Shown one piece after another: positions 13,479 through 57,481 of a stretch of DNA of 64,000 nt. Location: contig CP065013.1 of NCBI GenBank assembly GCA_016700315.1, positions 385,449 to 449,448 of the forward strand, written 5' to 3'. Positions within the stretch are counted from its first letter, which is position 1; every line of letters starts with the position of its first letter. Source of the stretch: Candidatus Saccharimonadota bacterium. Its GTDB lineage: Bacteria; Patescibacteriota; Saccharimonadia; Saccharimonadales; SZUA-47. The notes below the pieces were generated by a model. It was given only the letters and a program-made list of their open reading frames with translations, was not told the origin of the DNA and did not search any database. The translations under genes and the position numbers were made by a program.

Positions 13479-14000
13479 CTATTTTTGATAACCTTTATTA
13501 TTTAGTCCTAGTTCGGCGTTTATTCGGTTTTTGTACAGCTTATCGACCGAAAAGCCACATCTGTATGTGAAGCCTGTTTTTTGTCCGAAATATATGCCAC
13601 AATCAGGACCATTTCCCTTGTAGTTAAACTCGAATCCCTTCCTTGGTTCTTCGAGTTTGAATGTGTCCTTAACATAGCGCTTAGAACCTACAGTACTGGT
13701 AATCTTATCAAAATCATACTCATAGGCCTCGTCGCTCTTAAATAGCATATGGCAAGACCATCTGCTATATAATGCATCATTTAGGGCTTGAGGCTTCATA
13801 CATCCATTTTCCCAAGTTAGCTGGATTCCTAGCTCATCTTCAAACTCTTTCTTTAATGCCTTTACGTCTTTAATTAGACCCAAGTTACTTCTGTAATAAT
13901 AGTATTGCTTTACAAATGGGATAACTGCTATCCAAATGAACAGACCAACAATCAAGGCAATCATAAACCTACCAAAACTAGCTGTTTTTGGGAAGCTCAA
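13479..14000 (-). CDS. Hypothetical membrane-anchored Cys-containing protein (paralog B; start uncertain)
   Basis: 173 aa from a TTG start, with TM helix 'FMIALIVGLFIWIAVIPF', 'YSRWSCHMLF' and 'GPDCG...YRCGFSVD'. A conserved upstream ATG at 14088 is out of frame by +1. Confidence 0.5.
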   Translation of the reverse strand: MSFPKTASFGRFMIALIVGLFIWIAVIPFVKQYYYYRSNLGLIKDVKALKKEFEDELGIQLTWENGCMKPQALNDALYSRWSCHMLFKSDEAYEYDFDKITSTVGSKRYVKDTFKLEEPRKGFEFNYKGNGPDCGIYFGQKTGFTYRCGFSVDKLYKNRINAELGLNNKGYQK

Positions 14001-14108
14001 CTTGTTTAAGCGGAGCAGATGGTCTACTAACTCTGTCTGATTTTGTCTGACTGGGCTGGCTTCTGAGTTTACTGCTTTTTGTTGCCATAACTATATTAAA
14101 GCTTATGT

Positions 14109-14492
14109 TTACAGGGAGGGCAAGTTGAGTTTTGATCTTCGGAGATATTTCATGGTTAGTATTATTATGGCCAAGATAACGGTTATTGGTGTCAATAAAA
14201 TAATTGGTAATCCAACAGTTGCTTTACTTTGTGTAGTGACAGTACTGAGTTCTGTTGGTTTGGCACCTGACACTTTGAGTTCGAACTGGCCGATTGGCTC
14301 TGGGTTTAAGGCTTGGTAGCCGTCGTTCTGCGGGCTTACTGTTGCACTAGTAGATTGATTGTCGCCCTGGGTAGTTACGGGTTGCTGAAGCTCGTTTTGG
14401 TTGAACTGTAGGCTGGTTTGTCTGGCGTAAACATCGGCTTGGGGACCAACCAAAACAAGAGCAAGGAAAAATACATAGAGCAGCTTCTTCAC
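14109..14492 (-). CDS. Small exported protein with signal peptide and C-terminal membrane anchor
   Basis: 127 aa. Signal peptide 'MKKLLYVFFLALVLVGPQADVYA', a Q/T-rich middle, and a C-terminal hydrophobic segment followed by 'KYLRRSK'. Confidence 0.45.
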   Translation of the reverse strand: MKKLLYVFFLALVLVGPQADVYARQTSLQFNQNELQQPVTTQGDNQSTSATVSPQNDGYQALNPEPIGQFELKVSGAKPTELSTVTTQSKATVGLPIILLTPITVILAIIILTMKYLRRSKLNLPSL

Positions 14493-15628
14493 TATTTTTT
14501 GCCTTCTAATACAGATTTATAAACGCCTAGAGTTTCACACGCCATTTTTGACCATGAGTAGTTCTTGAGTTGTTTGTGGCCGTTCTTTACCAAGCTGTCT
14601 GCCAGGGCGGGGTTAGTTATTACTTCATCAATTTTAGCGGCCATATCGAGGTAATCTTTGGGATCAAAGAATTGGGCGGCTTGGCCATAAACTTCGGGCA
14701 GACAAGTCGCATTTGAGCTGACGAGTGGCGTCCCATGAGCCATTGCCTCTAAACCAGGCAGACCAAAACCCTCGCTTAAGCTAGGTAAGACGTAAGCAGC
14801 CGCATTTTCGTACAGCCATTTTAGTTGGCCGTCACTGACAAAACCGGGCAATATGATGTCATCTTTGACTGATGAGTTCTTCAAAGAGTTTTCTAATTTT
14901 TCGAAATATTGCTCTTTTTTGCCAGCAAGAACCAGAAGCAGATTGGGGTGTTTTTCTTTTAATAAGGTGAAGGCTTTTATTAGACACTCAATGTTTTTAT
15001 GAGGTAGGGGCGACCCAACGTGAAGCAGAAAGGCGAGAGCTGAGGGCTGAGGTCCTAGGGCTGAGATAGCTTCTGGGGGGGTAGCCTCAATCTCTGTAGG
15101 TGGCTCGCTTGATTCATATGTAACAACTATCTTTTTCTTCGTAAAAGGCTGGAGCTTAATTAAGTCTTGGCCAACAAAATTGGTTGGAACGATTATTTTG
15201 CGGCTGGCTCGGTGCGAATGCCAAAACAAAAATTTATATCCGGCCATTCTAATCCAATGAAGAAGTGTCGGTAGTTTGCCAGCGCGAGTGAAGCGGAGCA
15301 TGGTCAGATCGTGAGTTGTTGTAATGCGCGGCTTACTATAAAAAACCGGCTCCATCGGCGTCATTGCAAAGTGTACCAAATCCGCTTGAAGCGAGTTCAG
15401 GAATTTTGCAAAAGTAATCTGATCAGCTGGGTTAAATGAAAAGCGTTTGTACTTACAGGCAACAGCTTTAAAGTTTGGGGCGCTCGGCTGCCAAGTGTCG
15501 GTTGGCTCAAGTAGAATGATGTAGTTATTTTCTTTGTCAATTTTCTGTAAGTGCTCGACTAGCCGATCAGCGTAGCGCCCAGTACTGGAGCGGCGGATGC
15601 GAATATCAATAACAATTGTTTTCCCCAT
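14492..15628 (-). CDS. Glycosyltransferase, GT4 family (GT-B fold)
   Basis: 378 aa. C-terminal 'YVLPSLSEGFGLPGLEAMAHGTPLVSSN' contains the E(x7)E region typical of GT4. Confidence 0.8.
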   Translation of the reverse strand: MGKTIVIDIRIRRSSTGRYADRLVEHLQKIDKENNYIILLEPTDTWQPSAPNFKAVACKYKRFSFNPADQITFAKFLNSLQADLVHFAMTPMEPVFYSKPRITTTHDLTMLRFTRAGKLPTLLHWIRMAGYKFLFWHSHRASRKIIVPTNFVGQDLIKLQPFTKKKIVVTYESSEPPTEIEATPPEAISALGPQPSALAFLLHVGSPLPHKNIECLIKAFTLLKEKHPNLLLVLAGKKEQYFEKLENSLKNSSVKDDIILPGFVSDGQLKWLYENAAAYVLPSLSEGFGLPGLEAMAHGTPLVSSNATCLPEVYGQAAQFFDPKDYLDMAAKIDEVITNPALADSLVKNGHKQLKNYSWSKMACETLGVYKSVLEGKK

Positions 15629-15646: not shown

Positions 15647-16936
15647 ATGAGGCAGAGATTAAGAAGTATTTCGACCATAATATTTTTGGTGTTAGTTGCC
15701 TACATGCCGTTTCATGTACTTCTTGCGACGTGGGTTGGTTCTAGTCTTGGTGTAATGACAGTCGCCAAGATATTTAAAGATGTATTTGCTGTAGCAGGGC
15801 TGTTAATTGCCGCCGCGGCCGCTGGCAAAACACAGCTTAGAGCATTGCTTAAAAATAAGCTAACAATCCTGATAATGGCTTATGGCCTGCTAACAATTGT
15901 GCTGGCAACATTTCGCTCGACAGAACAGGATGCCGAAGTCTTAGGAGTCGTCTATAACCTTAGGTTTTTTGCGATTTTTATTTACGGCGCGATAGTCGCC
16001 GGCTGGCCGGAAAACAAGCACCTGCTCAAGAAGACCTTGCGGTTTGCGCTGGTGAGCGGGGCGGTAGTCGCTATATTTGGTATAGTTCAATACCTAGTGC
16101 TACCAAACAACGCGCTGAGTCATCTGGGCTATAGTCGAGCCAATGGTACACCGCCAGCTTTTTTCATAGACGAAAAACCAGATTTAGAACGGTCAATGTC
16201 GACGCTCAAAGACCCAAACTCGCTGGGATCTTATATGTTAATAATAATTGCGCTAAGTCTGGCCTTTAGCTTGTGCGCTACAAGAAAATTAAAAAAACTC
16301 TATATCAGTGTTTTGCTACTTAGCCTGGCGTGCTTGTGGTTTAGTTTTTCGAGGGGTGCACTAATAGGGCTGGTTGCAACAGTGGCTTGTTTGTTGGCAC
16401 TGGAGCCGACCAGCTTTGAATATCTAAAAAAGTATCGCAATAGGATTTTGCTGAGCCTAGCGGCTTTACTATGTATAGCCACTTTGTCGGGACTTGCTCT
16501 ACGTAATTCCTATCTAGTTAAAAACGTTATATTTCACGCCGACGAACAAACCGTGCTGGAGAACCCTAACCAACTACGAGCTAGATTCTTCAAAGAATCA
16601 ATCAGTAGAATCGCCCATAACCCACTTGGCTCAGGCCCTGGTACGGCAGGCCTGACATCAATTCGCAATCAGACTCAGGGCACTATTTTAAACGAGAATT
16701 ACTATCTGCAAATAGCAGAAGAAGTCGGCTGGCTGGGCATAATAATATTTGTAGCGATTTTATTTACGGTTATAAAAAAGCTTCTTGGCTTGCGTCATTT
16801 GCCAGCCGGCAGAGCACTTCTAGCTAGTTTGGCGGGTCTATTAATAACCTCGCTGCTAATTCACACTTGGTCCAACGAAACCATAGCCTACACCTGGTGG
16901 GGCCTATCCGGCCTATTGTTGTCTGTTAAGAGCTAA
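15647..16936 (+). CDS. O-antigen ligase/polymerase-like polytopic membrane protein (Wzy_C-type)
   Basis: 429 aa with about 10-12 TM segments and a central 'FSFSRGALIGLVATVACLL' loop region typical of O-antigen-ligase-like proteins. Confidence 0.7.
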   Translation: MRQRLRSISTIIFLVLVAYMPFHVLLATWVGSSLGVMTVAKIFKDVFAVAGLLIAAAAAGKTQLRALLKNKLTILIMAYGLLTIVLATFRSTEQDAEVLGVVYNLRFFAIFIYGAIVAGWPENKHLLKKTLRFALVSGAVVAIFGIVQYLVLPNNALSHLGYSRANGTPPAFFIDEKPDLERSMSTLKDPNSLGSYMLIIIALSLAFSLCATRKLKKLYISVLLLSLACLWFSFSRGALIGLVATVACLLALEPTSFEYLKKYRNRILLSLAALLCIATLSGLALRNSYLVKNVIFHADEQTVLENPNQLRARFFKESISRIAHNPLGSGPGTAGLTSIRNQTQGTILNENYYLQIAEEVGWLGIIIFVAILFTVIKKLLGLRHLPAGRALLASLAGLLITSLLIHTWSNETIAYTWWGLSGLLLSVKS

Positions 16937-18074
16937 CTTTATCGATGGCTGACTGTAGTTGTTTTGCCGATCTTGATGCGCTAAATTTGGCAGCCTGGCT
17001 GTAGCCTTCTTTTACCATTCTTTTACATAAAGCAGGGCTATTTAGTAATTTTTCTATGGCTTTAGTCGTTTCCAGAGGCTTTGCCGCATTGACTAAAAGT
17101 CCAGCTTTTCCAACTACCTCCGGCAACGAGGAATTATTACTAGTAATAACTGGTATGCCACAAGCCATTGCTTCTAATGGCGAAATGCCAAACCCTTCAT
17201 AATGTGGGATAAATACGTACAATGTCGCTCCGCTGTACAGTGCTGCTAAATCCTCATCTGCGATGTATCCAGTGCGGACAATATTTAACCCCTGATCCAC
17301 AAGTCTGTCGGCCTCTGCGTGGATTTCATCATTAAGCCATCCTTTACCGCCTGCCAAAACTAAGCCATATTCTTCCAAAACTTTTTTAGGTAATTTTTGG
17401 TAGGCTTCAAGTAAACCAATAACGTTTTTTCTTGGTTCGATGGTGCTCATATATAAAAGATATTTCTTAGGTAATTTTAGCTTATGCTTTACTCTTGCAA
17501 TTTCACTGGACGAAGTACGTTTGAACAATGACATGTCAATGAAAGGATTAACAATAGATACCCTATCTAGCGCTATGCCGTAATACTCAGACATATCTTT
17601 TTTGCTGCACTCGGAGATAGTGATTAAATGGTTGGCTTTTTTTATTGTTTTGGGTACAAATTTGAGCATGTAGTCTTTGTTCGGTCCCGAACTGTACTGA
17701 CCGTAAAAGACGAACGACAGGTCGTGTATTATAGCTACTGAGCGCTTGTTTAGTACGAGTGGCCATCTTACAAAATTTGGAAAAAGTATTACGTCTTTTC
17801 TGCTGGCACCAATAAATGCATCAATAGGTAAGGGTACGCCATTTTTGAAAAGACCTGTATATATTTTGCCAGGGAACCACCTAATTAAACGATAATTCAA
17901 TGAATCTGTTTTTGGGATGGGCGGGGTAAATTTTCTATAGAATAATCTGAAACCAAACAACTTGATTTTTTGTTCAGGGAATTCTTTATGGTAAGCTTCG
18001 ATCAATCTTTTTGTGAATGCGCCGATACCGGATCGCTCTGCAATTATGGCACTGGATTCGATAAATAATCTCAT
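16926..18074 (-). CDS. Glycosyltransferase, GT4 family
   Basis: 382 aa with 'YVFIPHYEGFGISPLEAMACGIPVITSN'. Confidence 0.8.
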   Translation of the reverse strand: MRLFIESSAIIAERSGIGAFTKRLIEAYHKEFPEQKIKLFGFRLFYRKFTPPIPKTDSLNYRLIRWFPGKIYTGLFKNGVPLPIDAFIGASRKDVILFPNFVRWPLVLNKRSVAIIHDLSFVFYGQYSSGPNKDYMLKFVPKTIKKANHLITISECSKKDMSEYYGIALDRVSIVNPFIDMSLFKRTSSSEIARVKHKLKLPKKYLLYMSTIEPRKNVIGLLEAYQKLPKKVLEEYGLVLAGGKGWLNDEIHAEADRLVDQGLNIVRTGYIADEDLAALYSGATLYVFIPHYEGFGISPLEAMACGIPVITSNNSSLPEVVGKAGLLVNAAKPLETTKAIEKLLNSPALCKRMVKEGYSQAAKFSASRSAKQLQSAIDKVSS

Positions 18075-19183
18075 TTCAAAGCCTCTTTGTATAAAGGTAT
18101 TATCTGCTCTTCAACAATTTTTTGAAAATCAAAGTTCTCGATAGCACGTTTTTTTGCGTTTTGACCAAGCTTTGACGCTAGTTCAGAGTTGCTAATCAAT
18201 TCTTGTAATGCCTCTGTTAACAAAGCGCTATTTTTTGGCGGGACAAGTAAACCACAAACATTTGACTCAACAATTTCAGGTATGCCACCGACATTTGTGG
18301 CTACAATAGGCAACCCAGCCATGCATGCTTCCGCTACAGCTATGCCAAATGATTCATGGTAACTAGCATGCACAAAGTAGTCCATCTGGGCTAGGTAGTT
18401 GTCGGAATTATTAACATATCCAACAAACCTGACTCGGTTTGCTACACCGAGCTTCGTGGCTAATGACTTGTAAATCTCGCCATTTCCGCTTAGACTCCCA
18501 ACTAACCACAGCTCCCCGTCAAAATTTACTAGTTTAGAAAAGGCTTCGAGTATTTCCTTTATCCCCTTGTCAGGCACCAGGCGGGATATTGCTCCAATAA
18601 CCGGTTTTGTTTTGTGCGCGGGCACTGGCGCATAAATCGGGAAGACACCGTTATGGATGGTAGTTAACTTACCTTTTAGTTCGCTTGCTACCTCAATTAT
18701 TTTTTGTTTTTCCGAATCACTGGTACAAATTATTTTCCGCGTGTAGTTTGCGCACGCCAAAAGCCATTTTTGCATCCGTGGGTGTGGGTGATTCTTGCGA
18801 TCTAATAAAAATTTTAGATCGCCATGATCGGTCCAAAAAACGTTTTTTCTCAAAATTCTTGCCGCCCAGGTTGCAAAAACGAAATCATCTCGGCTTTGAG
18901 GATGGACAATGTCAATCTTCTTAGAGATGATTACATATATATACCAAGCCGAAGTGTACAAAGCACGTAAATAATATAGCCTATCCCAAGACTGTTTTTC
19001 GTACCAAAGGCCTTTGATGGTTTTAATCTGCTTGAGTTTGCACTTATCTAGTATTGCCTTGTGCTTGGTTACGACAAAAGGTTCGTGGCCAGCTTTTTTA
19101 AACGCCAGCCCAAAATTATATGCATACTGTTCAGCTCCGCCCGTATCTTTTTGGTATGCATTTCTTATTATCAGTATATTCAT
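18071..19183 (-). CDS. Glycosyltransferase, GT4 family
   Basis: 370 aa with 'GGAEQYAYN' near the N-terminus and 'YFVHASYHESFGIAVAEACMAGLPIVATNVGGIPEIV'. 4-nt overlap with the downstream GT4 gene. Confidence 0.8.
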   Translation of the reverse strand: MNILIIRNAYQKDTGGAEQYAYNFGLAFKKAGHEPFVVTKHKAILDKCKLKQIKTIKGLWYEKQSWDRLYYLRALYTSAWYIYVIISKKIDIVHPQSRDDFVFATWAARILRKNVFWTDHGDLKFLLDRKNHPHPRMQKWLLACANYTRKIICTSDSEKQKIIEVASELKGKLTTIHNGVFPIYAPVPAHKTKPVIGAISRLVPDKGIKEILEAFSKLVNFDGELWLVGSLSGNGEIYKSLATKLGVANRVRFVGYVNNSDNYLAQMDYFVHASYHESFGIAVAEACMAGLPIVATNVGGIPEIVESNVCGLLVPPKNSALLTEALQELISNSELASKLGQNAKKRAIENFDFQKIVEEQIIPLYKEALK

Positions 19184-19199
19184 TTAGTAGAATTTTAAC

Positions 19200-20051
19200 A
19201 TGTATGAGGTATCCATATCTGATAGAATAGATATAATGCAGAAAATTTTTAAAAAAGAAAATCGAGCTGTTTTAAGAGAGTTAGTCGTAACGGATTTTAA
19301 GCTACGGTATCAGGGCTCGATACTTGGGTATGCCTGGTCATTACTAAGACCACTTTTCATGTTCTCCATTACATATCTAGTTTTTGCTGTCGTTTTCAAA
19401 GCAGGTAAAGGAGTGCCACATTACCCAGTCTACTTGCTGTTGGGGATTGTACTATGGACTTACTTTGGGGACGTTACGACTCAGGGTATTGGCGCAATAG
19501 TCGCTAGGGGTGATCTGATAAGAAAGATTAGAATCCCCAGATGGTTAATAGTGCTATCTGTGAGCATAGGAGCGACGATCAACCTACTTCTAAACCTAGT
19601 AGTTGTCTTAGTTTTTATTATCATTAGTAAAACCCCCATATCTGCAGGCGTACTTTTTTTGCCAATTTACATTGCGGAAATATATCTTTTTGCATTGGGT
19701 ATTTCACTATTTCTTTCTGCTTTATATGTGCGGTATCGCGACATAAGCTACATATGGGACATCATAACTCAAGCTGGTTTTTATTTAACACCAATTTTGT
19801 ATCCAATTACGAAAAACGCGAATCTATTGGCCTCACACTGGACGGCTTTGAAAGTAATGTATATAAATCCAGTAGCACATTCTATTCAGGGTATAAGGAA
19901 TGTAGTCGTTACTCAAGAAACACTTACAATCTCTGAAATTTGGAACAGTAACTACGCTTGGCTACTCCCTCTAGGAGTAATCTTGGTATCGTTGGTATTT
20001 GGAGTAGTGTATTTTAAAAAACAAGCCAGAACTTTTGCGGAGGATATCTAA
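19200..20051 (+). CDS. ABC-2 type polysaccharide/teichoic-acid exporter permease (Wzm/TagG-like)
   Basis: 283 aa with six predicted TM segments. N-terminal 'LRELVVTDFKLRYQGSILGYAWSLLRPL' is the ABC-2 signature region. An internal ATG at 19236 is an alternative start. Confidence 0.85.
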   Translation: MYEVSISDRIDIMQKIFKKENRAVLRELVVTDFKLRYQGSILGYAWSLLRPLFMFSITYLVFAVVFKAGKGVPHYPVYLLLGIVLWTYFGDVTTQGIGAIVARGDLIRKIRIPRWLIVLSVSIGATINLLLNLVVVLVFIIISKTPISAGVLFLPIYIAEIYLFALGISLFLSALYVRYRDISYIWDIITQAGFYLTPILYPITKNANLLASHWTALKVMYINPVAHSIQGIRNVVVTQETLTISEIWNSNYAWLLPLGVILVSLVFGVVYFKKQARTFAEDI

Positions 20052-20052
20052 A

Positions 20053-21179
20053 ATGACGGACGAAGTTGCAATCGAAGTCAGTAATTTATCAAAATCGTTT
20101 AACCTACCGCATGAAAAAAGCTCAAGTATCAAAGGCCTTTTCCTGAACATTTTCAGAGGTAAACGTAGTTTTGAAAAGCAACAAGTCTTAGACGATGTTA
20201 ACTTTGAGATAAAAAAGGCGAATTTTTTGGGATTGTCGGGCGTAACGGAAGCGGCAAGAGCACACTATTAAAGATGTTGGCCGGTATTTATTCGCCTGAT
20301 AAAGGGGCTATAAAGACCAATGGCAAACTTACCCCGTTTATCGAGTTAGGCGTAGGTTTTAGCCCAGAACTATCAGGCAGGGAGAACGTCTTTCTTAACG
20401 GTGCACTGTTGGGGTTTTCTCACAAGGAAATGGAAGGTATGTATGAAAGCATCGTCGAGTTTGCCGAATTAGAAGAACACATGGACAAAAAACTGAAAAA
20501 CTACTCCAGCGGCATGCAGGTTAGGCTAGCTTTTTCTATAGCAGTTAAAGCAAAAAACGATATATTAATTTTTGACGAGGTTCTGGCGGTAGGTGATGAA
20601 GCATTCCAAAGAAAATGCATGGACGTTTTTTGGGAGTACCGCAAGAACAAACAAACGGTGGTACTCGTGACTCACAGTATGGACAATATCAGGAACCTAT
20701 GTACAAGAGCATTAATGTTATCCGACGGTAAAGTTGAGATAATCGGTAGTGTCAAAGACGTGGCAAACGCCTACCTCAGAAGTAATGAAGATAAACCAGA
20801 GGCGAATAGCGGTGACCAAAGCACCTCAAAGATCAAAATAACAGGTTGCAAACCTGTATACAAACAGAATGAAACTATGAAGCTAAATCTCGCATGGCCA
20901 GAGGGTGAAGACGTAAAGAAGGCAGGTGTTGCCATATTCAATAAAGATGATAGGTGTGTATTCGCTAGCAACACAGGGGAAAAAATAATAAAAGGATCGG
21001 CTATTCGTTATTCTGTTAGCTTGAATTTGGGCCCGGGTAGGTATTACTTGAGCGCCGCAATCTATGGTCCTAAGGATCGTAGTATTGAGTTTGCTGATAA
21101 GGTTTGGAAATTTACAATTCGAGATGATTTTAATAGCGAGATTTCTGGTATTGTTAGACTCGACTATGCTTATGAATAA
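20053..21179 (+). CDS. ABC exporter ATP-binding protein (Wzt/TagH-like) with a C-terminal glycan-binding-type domain; intact only with a -1 shift at 20211-20217
   Basis: The ORF track splits it into 20035..20271 and 20274..21179. In the -1 frame from 20217 the sequence reads [25 protein letters not shown] (Walker A), then 'YSSGMQVRLAFS' (signature) and 'ILIFDEVLAVGD' (Walker B). GGAGG lies at 20039-20043, upstream of the ATG at 20053. Confidence 0.8.
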
Positions 21180-21214
21180 CGGGTCAAAAAGCAACATATA
21201 ACAAGTGTGAGAAT

Positions 21215-21525
21215 ATGTCTGTAAAAATATCCTGGCCAGATGTTGAAAACGTTGGTATGGTCGGTGTGGCTATCGTTGGTTACAATAATGAGTATGTTTT
21301 TGGCAGCAACACCGGCACGCTACTTCTAAAGGGGGTCAATTGATTACAAAGTTAAGCTTGATTTTGGGCCCAGACTCTTACTATTTGTCATCTCTCATTA
21401 AAGACAAAGATGGTCACGTTATTGAGTATGCTAATAAATCCTGGAGGTTCACCATACAAGATGATGGCAAGGACAGCGATACAGTAGGTGGGCTAACAGG
21501 CCTACCTTATAGCTATAAGAACTAA
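21215..21525 (+). pseudogene. Stand-alone diverged copy of the Wzt C-terminal domain, frame-broken at a G5 run
   Basis: 'MSVKISWPDVENVGMVGVAIVGYNNEYVFGSNTGTLLLKG' stops at 21341-21343. It continues in the -1 frame as 'QLITKLSLILGPDSYYLSS...WRFTIQDD'. The merged sequence aligns along its length with residues of the upstream Wzt C-terminus ('VFASNTGEKIIKGSAIRYSVSLNLGPGRYYLSA...WKFTIRDD'). Confidence 0.55.
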
Positions 21526-21551
21526 CAGGCACTACAGGCGGATAAATATAC

Positions 21552-22436
21552 TTGCATAATTACATATTTTATGGTAGTATTTTAGCTATGCAACAATTAT
21601 TACCTCCAACCATGCGAAGCCAAATCTTTGGCGGAGAAAAAGAAAGAAGAATATTTACTAATGCGCTAGACGAGGTTCACTCGCTTTATGGTGAGATGAA
21701 CAAGCAGCTTGTTACTCCAGATATTGATGTAGTTTGGGCCTTGTCTACGCCCGGCACTGTAAAAGAGCCGGCAAGCTTCCCTGAAGGAGAAAAAGACAAC
21801 CCCTACGAGGGCACGATGTTTAACAAAGGTACTATAGTAAGGTCTGTAGAGATTGTTCTCGAAGTAACAGCTCTTCGTCTTGGCAAGCCGGTAAGTGGGG
21901 TAACCAGAGAGGACGTAGCCTTGCATGGGCCTACTCTATACTATAACGGTGAAAGCGAACAGAACCCGGGTACTCGATTTCCGCAACAAAACCAACATTT
22001 CTTAGAGCTTTCGCAACAGCAAGACTTCCCGATACCTCCAGAAAAAGTCGTTATTTGCCCAATAATCGAAGTTAATACCCCTGGCCAAGTTAAGCAGCTA
22101 GCCGAATATTTAACCGGCAAACTGCCTGATACTAGAAAGGTGGCTGTCGTCCATGGTGTGCCACATGCCGCGAGAACCGGGCGTTATCTTGAAAAGTATA
22201 AAGGAGATTTTCCTGAAAGTACTACTATGGTTCCTTTCCTCGTTGATCAAAACGAAAAAGGGAATCAGTCCAGGCTAGCTGTCTTGGAAGCCGGCAAGGC
22301 GGCAATATATGGCGCAAAGGGCGATTTAGACGCACGATCTAGCTTCTTTGGTGAAGATGGGCCACAGCACCCAAGACCAAGAATAGATCTTCGTGGTGAC
22401 CTAAGGCAAAAAGGCTTATTGCCAAAACCTAGGTAA
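21552..22436 (+). CDS. Hypothetical protein (weak resemblance to DUF218/YdcF-type fold)
   Basis: 294-aa ORF; an ATG at 21588 is the more likely start. 'IEVNTPGQVKQLAEYL...VAVVHGVPHAARTGRYLEKY' loosely resembles DUF218. This is a low-confidence assignment. Confidence 0.4.
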   Translation: MHNYIFYGSILAMQQLLPPTMRSQIFGGEKERRIFTNALDEVHSLYGEMNKQLVTPDIDVVWALSTPGTVKEPASFPEGEKDNPYEGTMFNKGTIVRSVEIVLEVTALRLGKPVSGVTREDVALHGPTLYYNGESEQNPGTRFPQQNQHFLELSQQQDFPIPPEKVVICPIIEVNTPGQVKQLAEYLTGKLPDTRKVAVVHGVPHAARTGRYLEKYKGDFPESTTMVPFLVDQNEKGNQSRLAVLEAGKAAIYGAKGDLDARSSFFGEDGPQHPRPRIDLRGDLRQKGLLPKPR

Positions 22437-22471
22437 AGCCCTATTACTCAAGGGGTAAAAACGTTATAATA

Positions 22472-22500
22472 GTGTGGAGTAAATAAACTCCACACTTTTT
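22472..22500 (+). terminator. Rho-independent terminator candidate
   Basis: GTGTGGAGT (22472-22480), loop AAATAA, ACTCCACAC (22487-22495), then TTTTT. Confidence 0.55.
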
Positions 22501-22519
22501 GTGTGGCATAAGGGGTAAT

Positions 22520-23521
22520 ATGTTTAAAGATAAGGTGCTCTTGATTACGGGTGGGACTGGATCTTTTGGTAACGAGGTTTTAAAAGGCTTCCTAAACACC
22601 AACATTAAAGAAATACGTATCTTTTCGCGTGATGAGAAAAAACAAGACGACATGCGGAAGCGTTACGCCAACCCTAAGCTAAAGTTCTATATTGGCGACG
22701 TTCGAGATATAACGAGTCTTGAGACGGCGATGAAAGACGTAGACTACATCTTCCATGCAGCGGCACTCAAGCAAGTGCCATCGTGTGAATTTTTCCCACT
22801 ACAAGCAGTTAAAACTAATGTTATTGGTACAGACAATGTGTTGACGGTCGCTATTAGGAAAAAGGTGAAGAAGATCATTTGTCTCAGTACAGACAAGGCT
22901 GCTTACCCAATCAACGCAATGGGTACTAGTAAAGCAATGATGGAAAAAATAATAATTGCCAGAGCGCGTGAGTTGGGTAACGACTCGGATACGACCATCT
23001 GCTTAACCCGTTACGGAAATGTTATGGGCTCAAGAGGGTCGGTTATACCATTATTCTACAAGTTAATTGATGAAGGTAAGCCCCTAACTATCACTGACCC
23101 TACAATGACGCGTTACATGATGACTCTAGCCGACGCTGTTGATCTGGTTGTATTTGCCTTTAAGCACGGCAACCAAGGTGATTTATTTGTCCAAAAAGCT
23201 CCAGCCGCAGAGATTGGAGTTTTGGCAGAGGCTATAAAAAAGTATAAAAATTCGAAAGCAAAAACAGTGATTATTGGCACAAGGCATGGTGAAAAAGCAC
23301 ATGAAGTGCTTGTTACTCGTGAAGAAATGTCAAAAGCTGAAGATTTAAAAGAATTCTTCAGGATACCGATGGATAACAGAGATATGAATTATAATAACTT
23401 TTACCCAGATGGTGATGGTGATGTAGTGCAGTATGAAGAATATAGTTCTGACAAAACACGACGTATATACGAAGATGAGATTATTGAACTACTCAAGAAA
23501 ATGGGTGAGGTCGAAGTGTGA
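22520..23521 (+). CDS. UDP-N-acetylglucosamine 4,6-dehydratase/5-epimerase (FnlA/CapE/WbjB/WbvB type)
   Basis: The ATG at 22520 is preceded by AAGGGG. 'KVLLITGGTGSFGNEVL...IRIFSRDEKKQ...LSTDKAAYPINAMGTSKAMMEK' is typical of this SDR subfamily. About 333 aa. Confidence 0.85.
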   Translation: MFKDKVLLITGGTGSFGNEVLKGFLNTNIKEIRIFSRDEKKQDDMRKRYANPKLKFYIGDVRDITSLETAMKDVDYIFHAAALKQVPSCEFFPLQAVKTNVIGTDNVLTVAIRKKVKKIICLSTDKAAYPINAMGTSKAMMEKIIIARARELGNDSDTTICLTRYGNVMGSRGSVIPLFYKLIDEGKPLTITDPTMTRYMMTLADAVDLVVFAFKHGNQGDLFVQKAPAAEIGVLAEAIKKYKNSKAKTVIIGTRHGEKAHEVLVTREEMSKAEDLKEFFRIPMDNRDMNYNNFYPDGDGDVVQYEEYSSDKTRRIYEDEIIELLKKMGEVEV

Positions 23522-24369
23522 GGATATTTATTCTCGGCTCTGACGGAATGTTGGGGCATGTAGTCAGGGCATATTTCAGCGATAACAACCATCAAGTTTT
23601 TGGAACGACCCGTAATTTAGAGAACGAATTTTACTTTGATGTTACGAAAAACCTGAGCGACCTCAGTAGATACATAGAAAGTATTAAACCGGATGCTGTA
23701 ATAAACTGTATAGGACTATTAAATCAGGTAGCCGAAGAAAATAAATCTTTAGCAGTGTTAGTAAATGGTTATCTGCCACACTATGCTGACGAAATTTGTC
23801 GAAGAGTTAATTCTAAGTTTATACATATATCTACGGACTGCGTATTTGATGGTAAAAAGGGTGAGTACACGGAAGTCAGCCCAAAAGACGCGACAAGCTT
23901 TTACGGTCAGTCAAAAGCTATTGGGGAAGTAGAAAATGGGCGGAGCTTAACCTTAAGAACTTCGATAGTGGGACCCGACCCTAACGAAAAGGGCGTTGGT
24001 TTGTTCCAGTGGTTTATGAACCAGACAGGCGAGGTTAGTGGTTTTGATAAGGTGATTTGGACCGGTGTCACAACAATAGAGCTAGCAAAATGTATAGAAA
24101 AAGCAATCGAAAGTAACTTGTCTGGTCTCAGGCACGTCGTGAATAACCAGAAAATTGATAAGTTCAGTTTGCTACAGCTTTTCAAGACAACATTTGGTAA
24201 AAGCATTGAGATAAAGCGAAAAAGTGAATATGTTAGCGACAAAAGCTTAATCCGAAAAACGGACTTTGATTTTGGTGTTCCTAGTTACGAGCAAATGGTC
24301 CAAGATATGAGAAAATGGGTTAGCGATCACAAAGAAATTTATCCAAAAAGTCAAGGAGGTAGTCTGTGA
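23518..24369 (+). CDS. NAD(P)-dependent sugar-nucleotide 4-reductase, RmlD-like (WbvR/FnlB-role candidate)
   Basis: 283 aa with 'MRIFILGSDGMLGH' Rossmann start and 'STDCVFDG...YGQSKAIGE' (YxxxK). 4-nt overlaps with both neighbouring genes. Confidence 0.7.
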   Translation: MRIFILGSDGMLGHVVRAYFSDNNHQVFGTTRNLENEFYFDVTKNLSDLSRYIESIKPDAVINCIGLLNQVAEENKSLAVLVNGYLPHYADEICRRVNSKFIHISTDCVFDGKKGEYTEVSPKDATSFYGQSKAIGEVENGRSLTLRTSIVGPDPNEKGVGLFQWFMNQTGEVSGFDKVIWTGVTTIELAKCIEKAIESNLSGLRHVVNNQKIDKFSLLQLFKTTFGKSIEIKRKSEYVSDKSLIRKTDFDFGVPSYEQMVQDMRKWVSDHKEIYPKSQGGSL

Positions 24370-25466
24370 AAGTAATGACGATTGTGGGGACCCGTCCTGA
24401 GATAATAAAATTATCCGCTGTAATAGCAGAACTCGATAAGTACGCCGAGCATATACTAGTTCACACCGGTCAGAATTACGACTATGAGCTTAATGAAATC
24501 TTTTTTGATGGCATGGGCATCAGGAATCCCGATGTTTTTATGAATGCTGCCGGCAATGATGCTGCAGAGACAATAGGTAATGTCATCATTGGCGCCGATA
24601 AGCTAATGAAAGAGCTTAAACCAGATGCAGTCTTGCTTTATGGTGACACAAATTCTTGTCTTTCGGTTATTTCAGCAAAAAGAAACAAAATCCCTGTTTT
24701 CCATATGGAGTCGGGCAATAGATGTTTTGACCAGAGAGTGCCAGAAGAGCTGAATCGAAAAGTGGTGGATCATTTAAGTGATATTAATATGACTCTAACA
24801 GAACACGCCAGAAGATACTTGATGCGTGAGGGTATACCGCCTGAAACGATTATCAAAGTTGGTTCTAGTATGAAAGAAGTGCTGGCCAATAATCAAAAAA
24901 GTATAAACAGAAGTCAAGCTCTGAGGGACTTAGACTTAGAGCCAAAGAAATATTTTTTGCTCAGCGTTCATCGTGAGGAGAATGTTGATAATGAGAAGAA
25001 CTTTAAAGATCTAATCGATTCCATTGATGCTATTTGTGAACTATATAAATTCCCTGTTATTTTTTCAGTCCACCCCAGAACTCAGAAACTAATTGATAAA
25101 AACGAAGTTAAGTTACATGAGTTAGTTCGGTTAATGAAGCCATTGGGGTTTGCCGATTATGTACACTTACAGCAGAACGCATTTTGTGTGATATCTGACA
25201 GCGGTACTGTTACCGAAGAGTCGTCACTACTAGGGTTCCCTGCAATTACAGTTCGACAAGCCCACGAACGGCCCGAAGGCATGGATGAAGGTACGCTGAT
25301 AATGACGGGGCTAGACAAGGAGACGGTGTTAAACTCTATAAAAGTTGTCACATCTGGCACAATGTCTGTCGTAAAAGACTACGATGTTGAGAAGGTCTCC
25401 CAAAAGGTTGTGAGGATAATCATGAGCTACACTGGTTACATAAACCGAACAGTATGGAAAAAGTAG
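24366..25466 (+). CDS. UDP-N-acetylglucosamine 2-epimerase family, non-hydrolysing (FnlC/CapG/WbvD type)
   Basis: 366 aa with 'MKVMTIVGTRPEIIKLS...HTGQNYD...LYGDTNS...VHREENVD...SDSGTVTEES'. Confidence 0.85.
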   Translation: MKVMTIVGTRPEIIKLSAVIAELDKYAEHILVHTGQNYDYELNEIFFDGMGIRNPDVFMNAAGNDAAETIGNVIIGADKLMKELKPDAVLLYGDTNSCLSVISAKRNKIPVFHMESGNRCFDQRVPEELNRKVVDHLSDINMTLTEHARRYLMREGIPPETIIKVGSSMKEVLANNQKSINRSQALRDLDLEPKKYFLLSVHREENVDNEKNFKDLIDSIDAICELYKFPVIFSVHPRTQKLIDKNEVKLHELVRLMKPLGFADYVHLQQNAFCVISDSGTVTEESSLLGFPAITVRQAHERPEGMDEGTLIMTGLDKETVLNSIKVVTSGTMSVVKDYDVEKVSQKVVRIIMSYTGYINRTVWKK

Positions 25467-25560
25467 CGAAGGACAAGATGGTTTTTTGTAGATCTTTATA
25501 TCAGTGTCGTAATATATGTTCAAGAATGAACGAACCTTTTGTTGGCACTAGGGGCGGACG

Positions 25561-26394
25561 ATGATATACCTAAACTGCGAAGTTAAAAGTGGTCTAGGGG
25601 AAGACACCTTCTGGACTTGGTTTGAGAGAGAATTCCCTAACTCAGTATTCAAAGAGCCAAAAAAGTTGAATGATGACGATATCTTACTTAGGTACTCTAC
25701 TCTAGGGTTTTTACCAATTGAAGGAAAGCAGATGGCACTATGCTGGGAGCTTTACCCCGAAATGAAAGGGCTATTTAATACATCTTACTTTGATGAGCGT
25801 ATGAAAAAGGTTGACAATGCAGCACGCTACGCAACTTACCGTACTGTTGCTACTGAGGAAACTGCAAAAAACTATCAGAAGTATGGTCAGGTGCGTGTTA
25901 TACCCATCGGTGTGAACACAGATCTTTACAGACCTCTTAAAAACAAAAAAGCATTGAGAGTGAAGTATGGTTTACCGGAAAATAAAAAAATCGGCATATG
26001 GATAGGTACTCGTCACCCAATGAAGGGTATTTCTAAAATGTTGGAATATGCTAATGTAAACCCTGATATTGAGTGGGTAATGGTATGGAAATGGGAGATG
26101 GAAGAGCTAAAGATAAGTGGAGTGCATAATTTTGTAAAAATTGAGCAGCAACAGATTTGTGAGCTTCTCAATGCTTCTGATTTCTTTTTGGCAACTAGCC
26201 AGCTCAGGCCATACTATATGGCAGAGTGGGAAGCAATGGCGACAGGTATACCTTTTGTTCATTTTGGTGGAGCCGAACGTGAGTTTTACCCTTCTGATAA
26301 TCCCAGAGATGATGTCTTCAGCATGGGTTGGGACAGGAAGAGCGTCAAAAAGAAGTGGGTTGATTTTTTTAGGGAAAAGGGTGTCAAATGGTAG
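25561..26394 (+). CDS. Putative glycosyltransferase (GT-B-like C-terminal half)
   Basis: 277 aa. 'RPYYMAEWEAMATGIPFVHFG' resembles the GT-B acceptor/donor E-x7-E region. The N-terminal half is atypical. Confidence 0.5.
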   Translation: MIYLNCEVKSGLGEDTFWTWFEREFPNSVFKEPKKLNDDDILLRYSTLGFLPIEGKQMALCWELYPEMKGLFNTSYFDERMKKVDNAARYATYRTVATEETAKNYQKYGQVRVIPIGVNTDLYRPLKNKKALRVKYGLPENKKIGIWIGTRHPMKGISKMLEYANVNPDIEWVMVWKWEMEELKISGVHNFVKIEQQQICELLNASDFFLATSQLRPYYMAEWEAMATGIPFVHFGGAEREFYPSDNPRDDVFSMGWDRKSVKKKWVDFFREKGVKW

Positions 26395-27878
26395 AGGTCT
26401 CGATAGTCTGTCTTATATATAAGTCAAAGGTGTTGGCTGAAGCCGTGTATGAATCTGTGAAGAAGTACACACCCAAGTTGTCTACTGGGGAGGCAGAGTT
26501 CTTCTTTATTGCGAATGATCCCACGGAAGAGTTAGTAAATTATCTTGATGCTGAAAGTATACCTTATTACTTGAATATCAATGAGCATCTGAGTGATCAG
26601 GAGTTATTCGGCTTGGGGATTGGCTCACCAGAGTATATAAGAAGAGTCTATCAGGGTTACAACGCAGGAGTTCTCAAGGCCAAAGGTCAAAAGGTTGTGC
26701 TGGTAAATAGCGATAACTTTTTTAGTGATGACTGGCTTGAAAACCTGCTTAAGTACTCTGATTATAAAAAAGTGGTTTGTTCAACACTGATTGAGCCAGG
26801 ACAAGAAAAGTTTAGTGTGTTCCCGTTTGCTATAGAGAAAAACTTTGGTAGGACACTGGAGGATTTTGATGAAGTTGGGTTTACGGCGTACGCTAGCAGG
26901 TTGAGTAAAACTGGTTTTTCTTCTGGGGGAGCTTACATGCCATGCTTACTTTACAGGGACGTAGCAATTATAGCCGGGCTTTACCCGGAAGGTAATATTG
27001 CAGGTGAGTCTTTTGATCAGATCATTCGGTATGGCGATGAGGATTTTTATCGCAGACTCTCTCAGTTTGGAGTCGAACACATTACGGCGAAGGATAGTAT
27101 TGTGTATCACCTGAAAGAAGGTGAGAAATCTGAAAGCCTATCTGAGGCTAAGCTTTTCAAATCTAAGAAAACTAATGTACCGACGCTCGGTAAAAATCAT
27201 GTTGTTAGTCCCGTTTCGCTAACAAACTATATACAACCTGCCTCGGAACACGCTGATATAATGAGTTTGTTTTCCAAGAAGTTTACGGCGTTTATCATTA
27301 ATCCAACTAGTCTTTCTGAAGTGGAGAATAGCATTAAAGTGATAGAAAGTTTCAACTGTGCGAACGTTGAGACGGTGCTAATCAGCAGCAATAGAAGCCA
27401 CGTAGCACAGTGTAAGAATCGCGTTAAGTCTATTTACACAAGGCAAATAGACAAAGCGATATACGACGAACTGCATCATATGTACGGTGAGTTTGCGATT
27501 GTCATAAATGAACAATGCACATACGCTGACGACCTGCTAGATAAAGTTGATGATGTGAATTCTATTTATTACTTTGGTAGTGAAGACACAAGCAATAGTC
27601 CGATAATTGACAACGTTGGAAAATTTATTATCCCTAAAAGGGTAATCATCAATAATATACCGCTGTTTCTTGGCTATATTTTTGAAAAGAACATTCAGCA
27701 TCTGATATTTGACGGCATAATGGTTCATAATATTGCCCCTGAAAAAGTTGTAGATCCACCAGAACTACAACCAGCAACGGTGGAGCCACTCACAACAAGA
27801 GTTGTTAAAAAATATAAAAAAGACGGCGTAAAAGGTATAGCAAAGTCTATTGCAAACAAGGTGAAAAAACGAATATGA
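26388..27878 (+). CDS. Putative GT2-like glycosyltransferase with a C-terminal domain of unknown function
   Basis: 496 aa. '[10 protein letters not shown]...[16 protein letters not shown]...VLVNSDNFF' follows the GT-A layout (the DxD-like motif is 'SDN'). Confidence 0.45.
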
Positions 27879-29660
27879 AAAAGTCAAATCTTCCTAAAGT
27901 TAGCATCATTATTCCTGTATATAATGGATCAAACTTCTTGAAAGAAGCGATCGATAGTGCATTAGCACAAACGTATAAAAATCTAGAAATAATTGTTGTG
28001 AATGACGGGTCTGCCGATCAGGGAAAGACAGAAAAAATCGCCATGTCATACGGTAGCAAAATAAGATACTACAAAAAAGTAAACGGTGGGGTATCAACGG
28101 CTTTAAATCTAGGCATAAAGAAGATGACTGGTGACTATTTTTCATGGCTTAGTCACGATGATATATACTATCCAAAAAAGATCGAAAATCAGGTACGTTT
28201 TGTAGAGTCACTAAAAAAATAAAAACGTTATTGTGTATGCGAATTACGCACTACTGCAAGATAGCAGAATAGTGCCTGTAGAACTTAACCACGAACAGTT
28301 AGTCCGTAAGCCAAAGTACTCTCTATTAAGAGGCAGTGTGAACGGCATAACTCTTCTTATACCTCGTAGTATTCTATCTGATGTAGGGGAATTTGATGAG
28401 GAACTAAGATGCACCCAAGATTATGATCTATGGTGTAGGGCGTTTCGTAAGTACGATTTTGTACATATGGAAGAAATACTTACTGTTACTCGGATCCATG
28501 GGGCCCAAGATAGTGCAGTATCTCCAAACGTAGTCAAAGAAGGCGATATTTTATGGAAGAGGCTGATAGAAGAACTTAGCGATAAAGAGAAAATAGAGTA
28601 TGAAAACACGGTATATAACTACTATTATGAGATGTCTAAATTTCTACGGACTACGCCTTATAAAGGCGCGTTAGCGTACAGTTTAGATAAGGAAAAAGAG
28701 TCGCTTGAGAAGACTAAGCATAACGAATCTGAAAAACTAGTCACGGTAGTAATCCCTTTTCGAAATAGAGTAAATGACACCTTAAACTCCATAAAATCTG
28801 TTCAAGAACAGACGTACAAAAATACTGAGATTATCCTTATTGATGATGCTTCAACAGAAGATGTTTCCTCCTTAGAGAACTATGTTAAAAACTTACAAAA
28901 CGCATCGTTAATAAGTCTAGAAAAAAACTTAGGTCCTGGCGGGGCTAGAAACGTCGGTATCAGAGTCGCAAAAGGAGAATACGTAGCTTTCTTAGATTCT
29001 GATGACGAATTTATCTCTGAAAAACTGCAAACTCAAATCGAAGCAATGCGCTTACATAACCCGCACGTAAGTTACACGGCGTATACTAAAAAAACTGAAA
29101 CCGATGAGTCCGTTATTGGAGGCTACGGTATCTCTGGTGTGGTAATTCCGCGCTTAATAAGTAGCTGTCCTATAGCGACACCGACGGTTATCGTAAGAAG
29201 GAAAATATTACTAGATGAAGGTATATTTTTTGACGAGTCAATAAGAGTAGGAGAGGATACGTGTTTTTGGCTGGAAATAGCAAAAAAGCACGAAATACTT
29301 TACGTCGATAAACCGCTTACAGTAGTTAACGTAAATGCATCTACTAATGCGTATGATAGTAAAAAGTTCATAATTGGGCTCAAGAATATTCTTGCATACT
29401 TACTTAACGATAAATATTATTCCTCATTCTCTTACGACATTGCACTACTTTGTAACGATTACTATCAGGTAAACAGATCAGATAGGCTAATGTACGAAAA
29501 CGGGCTTGTGTTGGAGGATTACTGGAAGCCGTCAGTATCGCAATTTATAAAACATAAATTGAAAAAGTCTTTACCTTATCTCGTAGTAAGGAAGTTCCGT
29601 GCCAATGGCCTAAGAGGGGTTGCTGCTGCTGTTGTTAAACGAGCTAAAATAAGAACCTAA
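27875..29660 (+). CDS. Dual-domain GT2 glycosyltransferase (candidate glycan polymerase); intact only if the A7 run at 28213-28219 is read as A6
   Basis: The track splits it into 27875..28222 and 28233..29660. Domain 1: '[37 protein letters not shown]...[16 protein letters not shown]'. Domain 2: '[37 protein letters not shown]...FLDSDDEF'. The junction reads ...[19 protein letters not shown] after removing one A. Confidence 0.7.
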
Positions 29661-48501: not shown

Positions 48502-49314
48502 TTAGTCTTGAAAGCCGATAGGCTTTTCGAGTACGGCAATAAAAAATCCTATAGAATTTTGGCTAGGTTCAATTCTCCAGGCCTCTGCGCATGCAAGCTT
48601 CGGTAGCTTGTCTAGACTCAAAGCAGATTGTATAACATCAACATCAACGTGAAGCGCTTTGTGTATGACTCGTTCGTTCTCGTTTTTGTTTAGCGTGCAG
48701 GTGGCGTAAACCAAACGGCCTCCCGGCTTGAGAAGTTTCCAGGCTGCTTTTAGGATTTTGATCTGAAGCTGCTGCAGTCGTTTAACCTTTGCGCTAGACC
48801 AGGCAGTTGTTTGTTTGTCGTTGCCAGTCAGGGCTAAACCTTCGCCAGAACAAGGTGCGTCTATTAGAATCCGGTCAAAACTTTCTGGAGGGTATTGATC
48901 ATAGATCTTGCTCGCATCGTGTTTTGAGACAGTCGATTTTACGCCATGCTTAAGGAATAGTCTTTCCATACGTTTAATTCTCTCAAAGGATAAGTCGTTA
49001 GAGTGTAGATCCAGCTCTTGCAAACTGCTAGCATAAAGTGACTTCATACCAGGAGCAGCGCAAACATCAAGTAAACGTTGCTCGTCTTTCAGCTGTAGTT
49101 GGTGCACGGCGGCCATGCTTGCGAGGCTCATACCCTCAGCCTGCAATTCTTTTAATTCTATGGCCACGTTAGTTTGTTTGGCCATCTTTGACCATTTTAT
49201 TTGACGTCCATTTATTTGATTCAACGGATCAAAAAATGATGGCAGAACCTGAGTCTCGCGAAGATATAAACCTTGCGACTGCAGATACGAAATTATTTGG
49301 TTGCGGCTGCCCAT
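48502..49314 (-). CDS. RsmB/NOL1/NOP2/Sun-family RNA m5C methyltransferase
   Basis: 270 aa with SAM motif 'DVCAAPGMKS' and catalytic motifs 'DAPCSGEG' and 'YATCTLNKNENE'. Confidence 0.8.
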   Translation of the reverse strand: MGSRNQIISYLQSQGLYLRETQVLPSFFDPLNQINGRQIKWSKMAKQTNVAIELKELQAEGMSLASMAAVHQLQLKDEQRLLDVCAAPGMKSLYASSLQELDLHSNDLSFERIKRMERLFLKHGVKSTVSKHDASKIYDQYPPESFDRILIDAPCSGEGLALTGNDKQTTAWSSAKVKRLQQLQIKILKAAWKLLKPGGRLVYATCTLNKNENERVIHKALHVDVDVIQSALSLDKLPKLACAEAWRIEPSQNSIGFFIAVLEKPIGFQD

Positions 49315-49356: not shown

Positions 49357-50391
49357 TTAGGCAGACTTCAGTATTAGAGTGAACGTTGATCCTTTTCCCA
49401 CTTTGCTGGTTACGCTAATTTCAGAGTTTTGTCGATCACTTAAATCTTTTGCAATCGATAGTCCAAGACCAAAACCGCTAGATTGAGCTTTGTTTCTTGA
49501 TTGGTCTGCTCTATAAAAACGATCAAAAATATGCGGTATATCTTTGGCTTCTATTCCAATACCGGGGTCAGTAATACTGAGCAAAACTTTAGACTGTTTT
49601 CTTGCTGTTGAAATCTTGATAACTGATTTTTCTGGGGAGTATTTTATGGCGTTATCAAGAAGAATTGAAATTATCTGAGTAAGTGATTGTGGGTTGGCTT
49701 CTACAGTATGGTCTTTAGCATTGTTGTCGATAGTGATCTTTTTAGTTTCGGCGTAAACTCTAAGAGAATCAGTTGCAGAGTTTATTGACCCCAGTAACTT
49801 TACTTTAGAAAGCGACAAGTCAGCATGATCGTTTTTGGCTATTCCTAGTAATGAGTCCGTTAAGCGTCTTAGTTTCTCAACCTCTTTGACGTTCTCTGCT
49901 AGAATCTCGCGTGCTACTTCCTCGGTTATTGTTTTTCTTCTCAGCACAACTTCGTTAGTAGTCTGTAGTGCGGTTAGGGGGGTTCTAAGTTCGTGGCTAG
50001 CATCACTGACAAAACGAGTTTGGGCATCTATAGCAGCGTGAATTGGCGCAAGCGTTCTTTTGGCGAGGTAATAACTAAACCAAGCCCCCAATATGAGCGC
50101 GCTGATGTTTATCAAAATAAGTTTCCCTACCAAGGCCGTTCTAGCTTCTTGGCTTCGTTGCTTCTGGAAGTCGTTAAACAGACTTCTACGACTTGGTCCA
50201 GGACGAGTGATTTCAATTACATCACCAGTCTGGTCCCTCAAAAACTCTAGTCTATCACCTGCAACTGGACGATTTAGTTCGTTCACAGAAGTACGATAAA
50301 TCACTCCACTGAATCCTATGCACATTGCCATGATTATCCCGAGATATGTTGCCGCTAACTTGGTTTTTGAATCGGAAATAAGTTTTTTCAT
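49357..50391 (-). CDS. Two-component sensor histidine kinase
   Basis: 344 aa with two TM helices, H-box 'SHELRTPLTAL', N-box 'LLDNAIKYS' and G-box 'GFGLGLSIAKD'. Confidence 0.85.
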   Translation of the reverse strand: MKKLISDSKTKLAATYLGIIMAMCIGFSGVIYRTSVNELNRPVAGDRLEFLRDQTGDVIEITRPGPSRRSLFNDFQKQRSQEARTALVGKLILINISALILGAWFSYYLAKRTLAPIHAAIDAQTRFVSDASHELRTPLTALQTTNEVVLRRKTITEEVAREILAENVKEVEKLRRLTDSLLGIAKNDHADLSLSKVKLLGSINSATDSLRVYAETKKITIDNNAKDHTVEANPQSLTQIISILLDNAIKYSPEKSVIKISTARKQSKVLLSITDPGIGIEAKDIPHIFDRFYRADQSRNKAQSSGFGLGLSIAKDLSDRQNSEISVTSKVGKGSTFTLILKSA

Positions 50392-54694: not shown

Positions 54695-54910
54695 CTAATT
54701 GGGGCAAGCATTGATCTTACGACCAACAAGTTTATTTAGAATACATACTTTCATGACACCCGAAAGCATTAATAAAACACCTACCACCCCAAGTACCCAC
54801 GCCCAATTCCCCTTTAGAACTACAACCGCCAAACACTCTACAAAAGCCCCAACAACAAGCCTAATCGTACGACCTGTTTTCCCGCTCGCAAAATCGACAA
54901 ATTTTTCCAC
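54695..54910 (-). CDS. DUF2892 (YgaP-like) small membrane protein
   Basis: 71 aa with 'GRTIRLVVGAFV...GVLLMLSGVMKVCILNKLVG'. Confidence 0.55.
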   Translation of the reverse strand: MEKFVDFASGKTGRTIRLVVGAFVECLAVVVLKGNWAWVLGVVGVLLMLSGVMKVCILNKLVGRKINACPN

Positions 54911-54949
54911 TTTAGAGCACCTCCTTAATGATTCAAGTATACTACATAT

Positions 54950-55145
<196 letters not shown>

Positions 55146-55148
55146 TTT

Positions 55149-56686: not shown

Positions 56687-56691
56687 GCTAA

Positions 56692-57420: not shown

Positions 57421-57481
57421 AAAACATTGTAATTCTGAAATAATAGGAGCATAATCAGTTCATATTTTAGGAGGATTTTTC

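Follow-up and report, generated by a model that had tools for sequence, protein, structure and literature searches.

The gene for a Wzt/TagH-like ATPase of a glycan exporter is split at a run of six A in the Saccharibacterium window (the whole stretch of 64,000 nucleotides that was analysed), and a glycosyltransferase gene further downstream is split at a run of seven A, where other assemblies of the same organism have seven and six, respectively. The best reading of both discrepancies, to which we give a probability of roughly three in four on the basis of sequence comparisons, is that they are homopolymer errors of the consensus. Since the seventh A is present, and the ATPase gene unbroken, in every other assembly of this organism, the break in this gene most likely results from an error of sequencing or assembly and not from programmed slippage of the ribosome.

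The window reads the ATPase gene in two frames that meet at the A run:

20053 to 20271, + strand: 5' fragment of a wzt/tagH-like ABC ATPase gene, 72 aa in the zero frame, no Pfam match.
20211 to 20216, + strand: A6 run, site of a 1-nt length discrepancy (A7 in 8 of 8 conspecific contigs, as the sole gap).
20217 to 21179, + strand: remaining part of the wzt-like gene, read in the -1 frame, with Walker A, signature YSSGMQ, Walker B ILIFDE, H-loop VTHS and, at the C-terminus, a putative Wzt_C-like domain; ORF from ATG 20274.

Direct reading of the sequence gives a 72-aa ORF that starts at ATG 20053, has the codons ATA AAA AAG at 20209-20217 in its zero frame, and ends in '...FEIKKANFLGLSGVTEAARAHY*' with the stop at 20269-20271 (the zero frame runs ...FEIKK-ANFLGLSGVTEAARAHY, then stop). 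This product has no Walker A motif, and a Pfam search of it returned no domain. From 20217 onwards, the -1 frame is continuous with ORF 20274..21179, and the identical 375-aa protein is obtained from either a -1 shift or one inserted A. This agrees with the preliminary description of the locus, which had reported a zero frame that stops at 20269-20271 without Walker A, the recovery of Walker A and of the downstream ORF by a -1 shift on A AAA AAG (20211-20217), and the equivalent repair by A7 instead of A6. The ABC_tran score in Pfam rises from 26 bits in the 301-aa fragment (from profile position 30) to 80 bits in the restored protein (positions 1-135), and the 72-aa piece has no match; the frame break thus lies inside the ABC_tran domain.

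The neighbours of the ATPase gene belong to a cluster for glycan synthesis and export:

19200 to 20051, + strand: intact gene of a wzm-like ABC-2 permease (283 aa); Pfam ABC2_membrane (PF01061), E = 1.5e-11.
16926 to 19183, - strand: two GT4 glycosyltransferase genes (Pfam), part of the glycan-cluster context.
22499 to 25466: sugar-nucleotide genes, part of the glycan-cluster context of the exporter.

The identification as a Wzt/TagH-like ATPase, also made in the preliminary description, is borne out by the NBD motifs, PF00005, the PDB matches and the adjacent permease. PF00005 matches the restored protein with E = 4.2e-22, and its Walker A, signature, Walker B and H-loop (VTHS) motifs are invariant across a 16-sequence alignment that is colinear over the frame junction and in which G56 is invariant too. 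Among the matches listed, the 120 homologues of the restored protein are nearly all of 361-402 aa (one has 341 aa), all of them unsplit and with a query coverage of 87-100%; the best is just 65% identical, and those that are named come mainly from Saccharibacteria/Patescibacteria. The best PDB match is 8dku/7k2t, a 404-aa 'ABC transporter' (E = 1.9e-61, residues 34-358), followed by 6an5/6oih and then by TagH/TarH, with the Wzt and TagH matches in the PDB spanning E = 1e-61 to 1e-46. The Wzt_C profile (PF14524), carried by most of the homologues listed, scores 28.8-29.4 bits in the restored protein for a cut-off of 30.4. TagH and galactan Wzt rank on top in NCBIfam, far under their equivalog cut-offs (185 vs 538 bits and 181 vs 400, respectively, with a further match at 171 vs 320). 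Scores below every equivalog cut-off indicate a member of the family whose substrate is undefined. The permease gene stops 1 nt before the start codon of the ATPase gene (ATG 20053), and galactan Wzm/RfbD is its best match in NCBIfam, below the cut-off. The exporter is flanked by GT4, GT2, UDP-sugar epimerase/dehydratase-type and Polysacc_synt_2 genes (Pfam), in what is the most AT-rich part of the window (39-42% GC).

Taken together, the homologues, the structures, the NCBIfam ranking, and the permease and glycan genes nearby predict that the restored locus is a glycan exporter of the Wzm-Wzt/TagGH type, of undefined substrate. It shares with the Wzm-Wzt O-antigen and TagGH-TarGH exporters (8dku/7k2t, 6an5/6oih, 6jbh TarH, 7dd0/9cfl TagH) the NBD motifs and probably a Wzt_C-like C-terminus, an ABC-2 permease encoded directly upstream, and glycosyltransferase and sugar-nucleotide genes around it. 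It differs from them in falling below all NCBIfam equivalog cut-offs and in its host, a cell-wall-bearing CPR bacterium.

An exact-protein look-up found the 283-aa permease on 16 contigs, eight of which were returned as sequence (SRR14092354, 383, 385, 388, 389, 391, 393 and SRR31893870). These come from independent short-read runs. All eight read GAGATAAAAAAAGGC at the site (A7), where the window reads GAGATAAAAAAGGC (A6), and the 375-aa gene is called in every one that spans the whole gene. In BLAST alignments to the window, six of the eight have no mismatch and exactly one gap over up to 6,424 nt. Of the remaining two, one (L007) has a single mismatch and A7, and the other (L003) has nine mismatches (16885-18350) and still A7. 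The intact 375-aa product was found on 13 Logan contigs by exact-sequence look-up, whereas the 72-, 78- and 301-aa split products were on no contig of the 15-billion-protein collection searched in the same manner. The closest of the more distant loci (L020) has ATC AAA AAA GGT at this position, in frame. A pattern scan for the site with A6, A7 or A8 returned no matches in GTDB representative genomes and JGI metagenomes. The preliminary description had taken A7 in reads or orthologues as the sign of a simple error, and the orthologues do have A7, in frame, both among conspecific contigs and in the more distant locus. Of the three causes it had proposed, the 1-nt under-call is the best supported, frameshift-dependent expression is not supported in view of A7 elsewhere, and a real mutation stands as the rival discussed below. 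The exact products of five other ORFs of the window were not on record in the look-up, so that same-strain reference contigs cover just 16874-29691.

A second discrepancy, of opposite sign, lies within the same cluster:

27875 to 29660, + strand: double-GT2 glycosyltransferase gene (Pfam GT2), split into 115 aa and 475 aa; intact, with 594 aa, in two further contigs (L014 and L015).
28213 to 28219, + strand: A7 run, second homopolymer-length discrepancy (A6 in other assemblies), opposite in sign to the first.

The window has two ORFs here, 27875..28222 (115 aa) and 28233..29660 (475 aa), and the GT2 profile ends at position 105/168 in the shorter piece (Pfam). Two contigs retrieved through the epimerase gene at 24366..25466, L014 (SRR14092385) and L015 (ERR8482638, from a different project), differ from the window between 22919 and 29691 solely by A6 instead of A7 at 28213-28219. 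The intact 594-aa glycosyltransferase is on nine Logan contigs; the 115-aa and 475-aa fragments are confined to one 988,272-bp NCBI contig, from which the window comes and where they are recorded as QQS65316.1 and QQS65317.1 (locus-tag prefix IPO96). Over the 12.8 kb from 16874 to 29691, the window differs from the best-matching contigs by two indels (one -1, one +1) and no substitution. Among the eight sequenced contigs that reach across one of the two poly-A sites, seven have that single base as their lone difference over these 12.8 kb. The other contigs agree with the window in 46 of the 48 homopolymers of at least six bases in this region.

This region has the outline of an island. From 16874 to 29691 it is 100% identical, except at the two A-run sites, across many runs from at least three projects, and several contigs end at the common points 16874/16876 and 29691. 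For the genes on either side, 15647..16936 and 14492..15628, the look-up had no record of the exact products. Strains with different flanks may have this glycan island in common, or its flanks may vary between strains.

The surroundings of the exporter also hold a gene remnant whose frame break has a different distribution:

21215 to 21525, + strand: relic of a second Wzt C-terminal domain, in ORFs of 42 aa and 61 aa, split at a G5 run (21331-21335).

Directly downstream of wzt, this segment encodes a 103-aa Wzt_C-like sequence that aligns with the resident Wzt at residues 276-375 (40% identity, E = 3e-24); its match to Wzt_C in Pfam (E = 4.8e-5) is below the cut-off. The G5 run is identical in the six contigs (of six) that reach the relic, and an exact look-up found the 42-aa product on 24 contigs and the 61-aa product on 19. 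Every contig that covers the relic has the split, which is therefore genuine, and the segment is best described, from its similarity to the resident gene, as a genuine relic of the 3' end of another wzt. The closest related locus, L020, has neither the relic nor the 282-aa gene that follows it (21552/21588..22436, no Pfam match).

A scan of ORFs and codon usage, with Pfam searches of the candidates, confirmed no further split gene in the other 51 kb of the window. Four candidate pairs (40664/41785, 80/504, 7321/8298 and 32184/33226) have distinct or complete Pfam domains and were rejected as separate genes. The pair 13479/14109 had no Pfam match. It lies in a minus-strand stretch, 13479-14492, where the codon usage of three frames (14109..14492, 13978..14223 and 13479..14000) is coding-like. 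These frames have A5 runs where they overlap and match no Pfam domain; they could be another split gene or small genes. On the right side of the window, five contigs (L009-L013) that are 96-98% identical to it cover about 13 kb and have no gene-breaking homopolymer indel over this length. Their gaps are of two kinds, alignment gaps that compensate each other where the sequences have diverged and two differences of 1 nt between genes.

If the two discrepancies are consensus errors, this wastewater-type Saccharibacterium (TM7) would carry an ordinary, intact wzm-wzt operon for glycan export. The true gene would encode Ile-Lys-Lys-Gly as ATA AAA AAA GGC (A7), and the consensus of the single 988-kb MAG contig would have lost one A, splitting the ATPase in silico just before Walker A and leaving A_AAA_AAG in register with the zero frame. 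This assembly would also have gained one A in the A6 run 8 kb downstream, with the split of the glycosyltransferase as a result, and both changes would be homopolymer-length errors that survived the polishing of a long-read assembly. There would be no recoding, and the cell would make the 375-aa Wzt by standard translation.

Two homopolymer indels of opposite sign and no substitution, in a single assembly, are the pattern that residual errors of a consensus leave. Two papers name homopolymer length as the error that most often remains in long-read assemblies, and as the reason for polishing them with short reads (PMC8812927, PMC9262707), and a survey of 1,106 genomes judged singleton frameshifts confirmed by homology to be mostly sequencing errors (PMC3711429). 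The recovery of a single 988-kb contig out of a metagenome suggests that the source assembly was based on long reads. The IPO96/QQS records presumably belong to the closed MAGs of Patescibacteria described by Singleton et al. 2021. That study built its MAGs from Nanopore reads with CANU/Flye, Racon and medaka (r941 model), plus a single Racon round on Illumina reads (PMC8012365). We also counted in favour of error the artefact-like poly-G runs (G22-T-G40 and G16) by which ORFs of the same contig are truncated. The two sites resemble the consensus errors of long reads (Nanopore R9-type) in being single-base changes in homopolymers of 6-7 nt, in both directions and within one assembly, with flanks that match short-read assemblies and genes that are split into adjacent ORFs. 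They differ from typical cases in that there are just two of them, both in one AT-rich island, and in that the platform is presumed. The comparisons show how the alleles are distributed, that the flanks are identical, that there is a second site and that stimulators of frameshifting are lacking; that the discrepancy is an error and not a rare true allele, and that the assembly is based on long reads, is inferred.

The poly-G runs are at 55053-55115 (G22-T-G40) and 55192-55207 (G16), within 54910-55556. The approximately 650 nt around them do not align to contigs of related strains, of which four (L009-L012) have 245 nt of unrelated sequence instead. Two ORFs are cut short by the runs, a Cdd1-like one at profile position 35/86 and a DUF1697-like one after about 12 residues. 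The runs look like artefactual bridges; a pattern taken from beside them gave no matches in a pattern scan. Further to the right, an 803-aa protein without Pfam domain (57482-59893) is identical at the protein level in contigs of other studies, ERZ27309394, ERZ28655916, ERZ28656156, ERZ28613422 and SRR6747781, while the 8.2 kb around its gene (55557-63763) are just 95.9% identical. This mosaic of identities suggests recombination or strong constraint.

The main rival holds that the A6 allele is real, i.e., that a recent slipped-strand deletion in wzt and an insertion in the glycosyltransferase gene have switched off the synthesis and export of a surface glycan in the population behind this MAG, by strain-specific pseudogenisation or as the reversible OFF state of a phase-variable system. 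The exporter would then be expressed at most in a leaky way, through very low-level spontaneous -1 slippage on A_AAA_AAG. What speaks against error here is that both discrepancies fall inside the surface-glycan island, where slipped-strand loss or phase variation is biologically plausible, and inactivate genes of one pathway. If errors were uniform, the chance that both sites fall in the island would be approximately (48/152)^2, roughly 0.1 (48 being the island homopolymers of at least six bases and ~152 the long homopolymers of the window). Together with the lack of other split genes detected in the window, this leads us to keep real alleles as an unlikely but serious alternative. The locus already has one genuine frameshifted relic (21215-21525), and poly-A/T tracts of at least 7 nt near frameshifts, in genes for surface structures and transporters, are the signature of phase variation in the survey cited above, whose screen for slipped-strand variation used tracts of at least 7 nt (PMC3711429). 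Against this stands the count of alleles, with OFF in one assembly and ON on 13 contigs at the first site and on nine at the second. Two indels without any substitution over 12.8 kb would be an unusual spectrum for true divergence, and L003 gained nine SNPs with no change in the tract. Tracts of high-frequency slippage are usually of 8-9 nt or more, and the 6-7 nt at both sites are short for high-frequency contingency loci. The sites thus share with phase-variable surface-glycan genes a homopolymer tract in the 5' part of the gene whose length varies among conspecifics, and differ from typical ones in having a tract of just 6-7 nt and an OFF allele in one assembly. A more specific version, in which A6 in wzt and A7 in the GT2 gene are the coordinated OFF state of one wastewater population of an episymbiotic Saccharibacterium, with trace expression of the exporter through slippage, seems to us distinctly improbable.

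The preliminary description had put forward another reading in its headline, namely that the gene is split exactly at a -1 slippery heptamer, with programmed frameshifting of the dnaX or IS type on A_AAA_AAG required for full-length Wzt and the 72-aa protein made as a second or regulatory product. We regard this as very improbable and, by the comparison with orthologues that the description itself had proposed, as refuted. The heptamer is indeed at 20211-20217 in the correct zero-frame register, and A_AAA_AAG is the slippery sequence of dnaX (PMC4344849). However, deleting one A from ATA AAA AAA GGC leaves A_AAA_AAG in register automatically, so that the exact coincidence of the split with a slippery heptamer carries no independent information. 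The motif is also common: the 64-kb window has 56 copies of AAAAAAG for 31 expected (one more of them in the same gene, at 20114-20120), and A AAA AAG is present in 68 E. coli genes (PMC9307594). The proposed reading is not supported by the comparative data, since A7 is in frame in all eight conspecific contigs, the intact product is on 13 contigs, and distant homologues are single ORFs, both in the closest one and in all 120 among the matches listed.

The local sequence points in the same direction. We found no AGGAGG-like element 8-16 nt upstream of the heptamer, where the sequence is gatgttaactttgagat, and no stable structure downstream: the 73 nt that follow fold at -10 kcal/mol where shuffled sequences average -14.6 (z = +1.7), and 195 of 200 shuffles fold better. 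The preliminary description had itself remarked on the lack of an SD-like stimulator and of a downstream hairpin, and that caveat holds. Spontaneous frameshifting in canonical translation in vivo is reported at 1e-4 to 1e-5 (PMC9307594), the zero-frame product has no domain, and the second broken gene (28213-28219) would require a shift in the opposite direction. The site has in common with programmed -1 frameshifting in dnaX and IS elements the heptamer and its register, and lacks their upstream SD, downstream structure, conservation and functional zero-frame product. Transcriptional slippage, in which RNA polymerase would restore the frame by adding an A to some mRNAs, as reported for the long poly-A tracts of reduced endosymbiont genomes, is a negligible possibility even in a reduced (988-kb), A/T-rich genome with many A runs: the run has six A where appreciable slippage needs approximately nine or more, and one assembly alone has the A6 allele. 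Both kinds of slippage were rejected.

A separate feature of expression in this window concerns the starts of genes. Many of them have a TATAAT-like hexamer at most about 15 nt from the ATG and lack an SD-like sequence; examples are the upstream regions of 14492..15628 (-), 15647..16936 (+), 49357..50391 (-) and 48502..49314 (-). This arrangement suggests that leaderless mRNAs, or mRNAs with very short leaders, may be frequent in the Saccharibacterium from which the DNA came.

The finding is an ordinary one, and its main value lies in a caution and in a correction to annotation. The loss of one base from an A7-G tract yields an in-register heptamer, and frame breaks in AT-rich MAGs assembled from long reads can therefore imitate programmed frameshifting. 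With homopolymer errors as the preferred explanation, wzt, probably flagged as a pseudogene in the public record, and the glycosyltransferase recorded as QQS65316.1 and QQS65317.1 are most likely intact single genes. If the alleles were real instead, they would hint at on/off switching of a surface glycan in a CPR episymbiont, and a coordinated OFF state might then serve, e.g., in escape from phages or in a changed attachment to the host.
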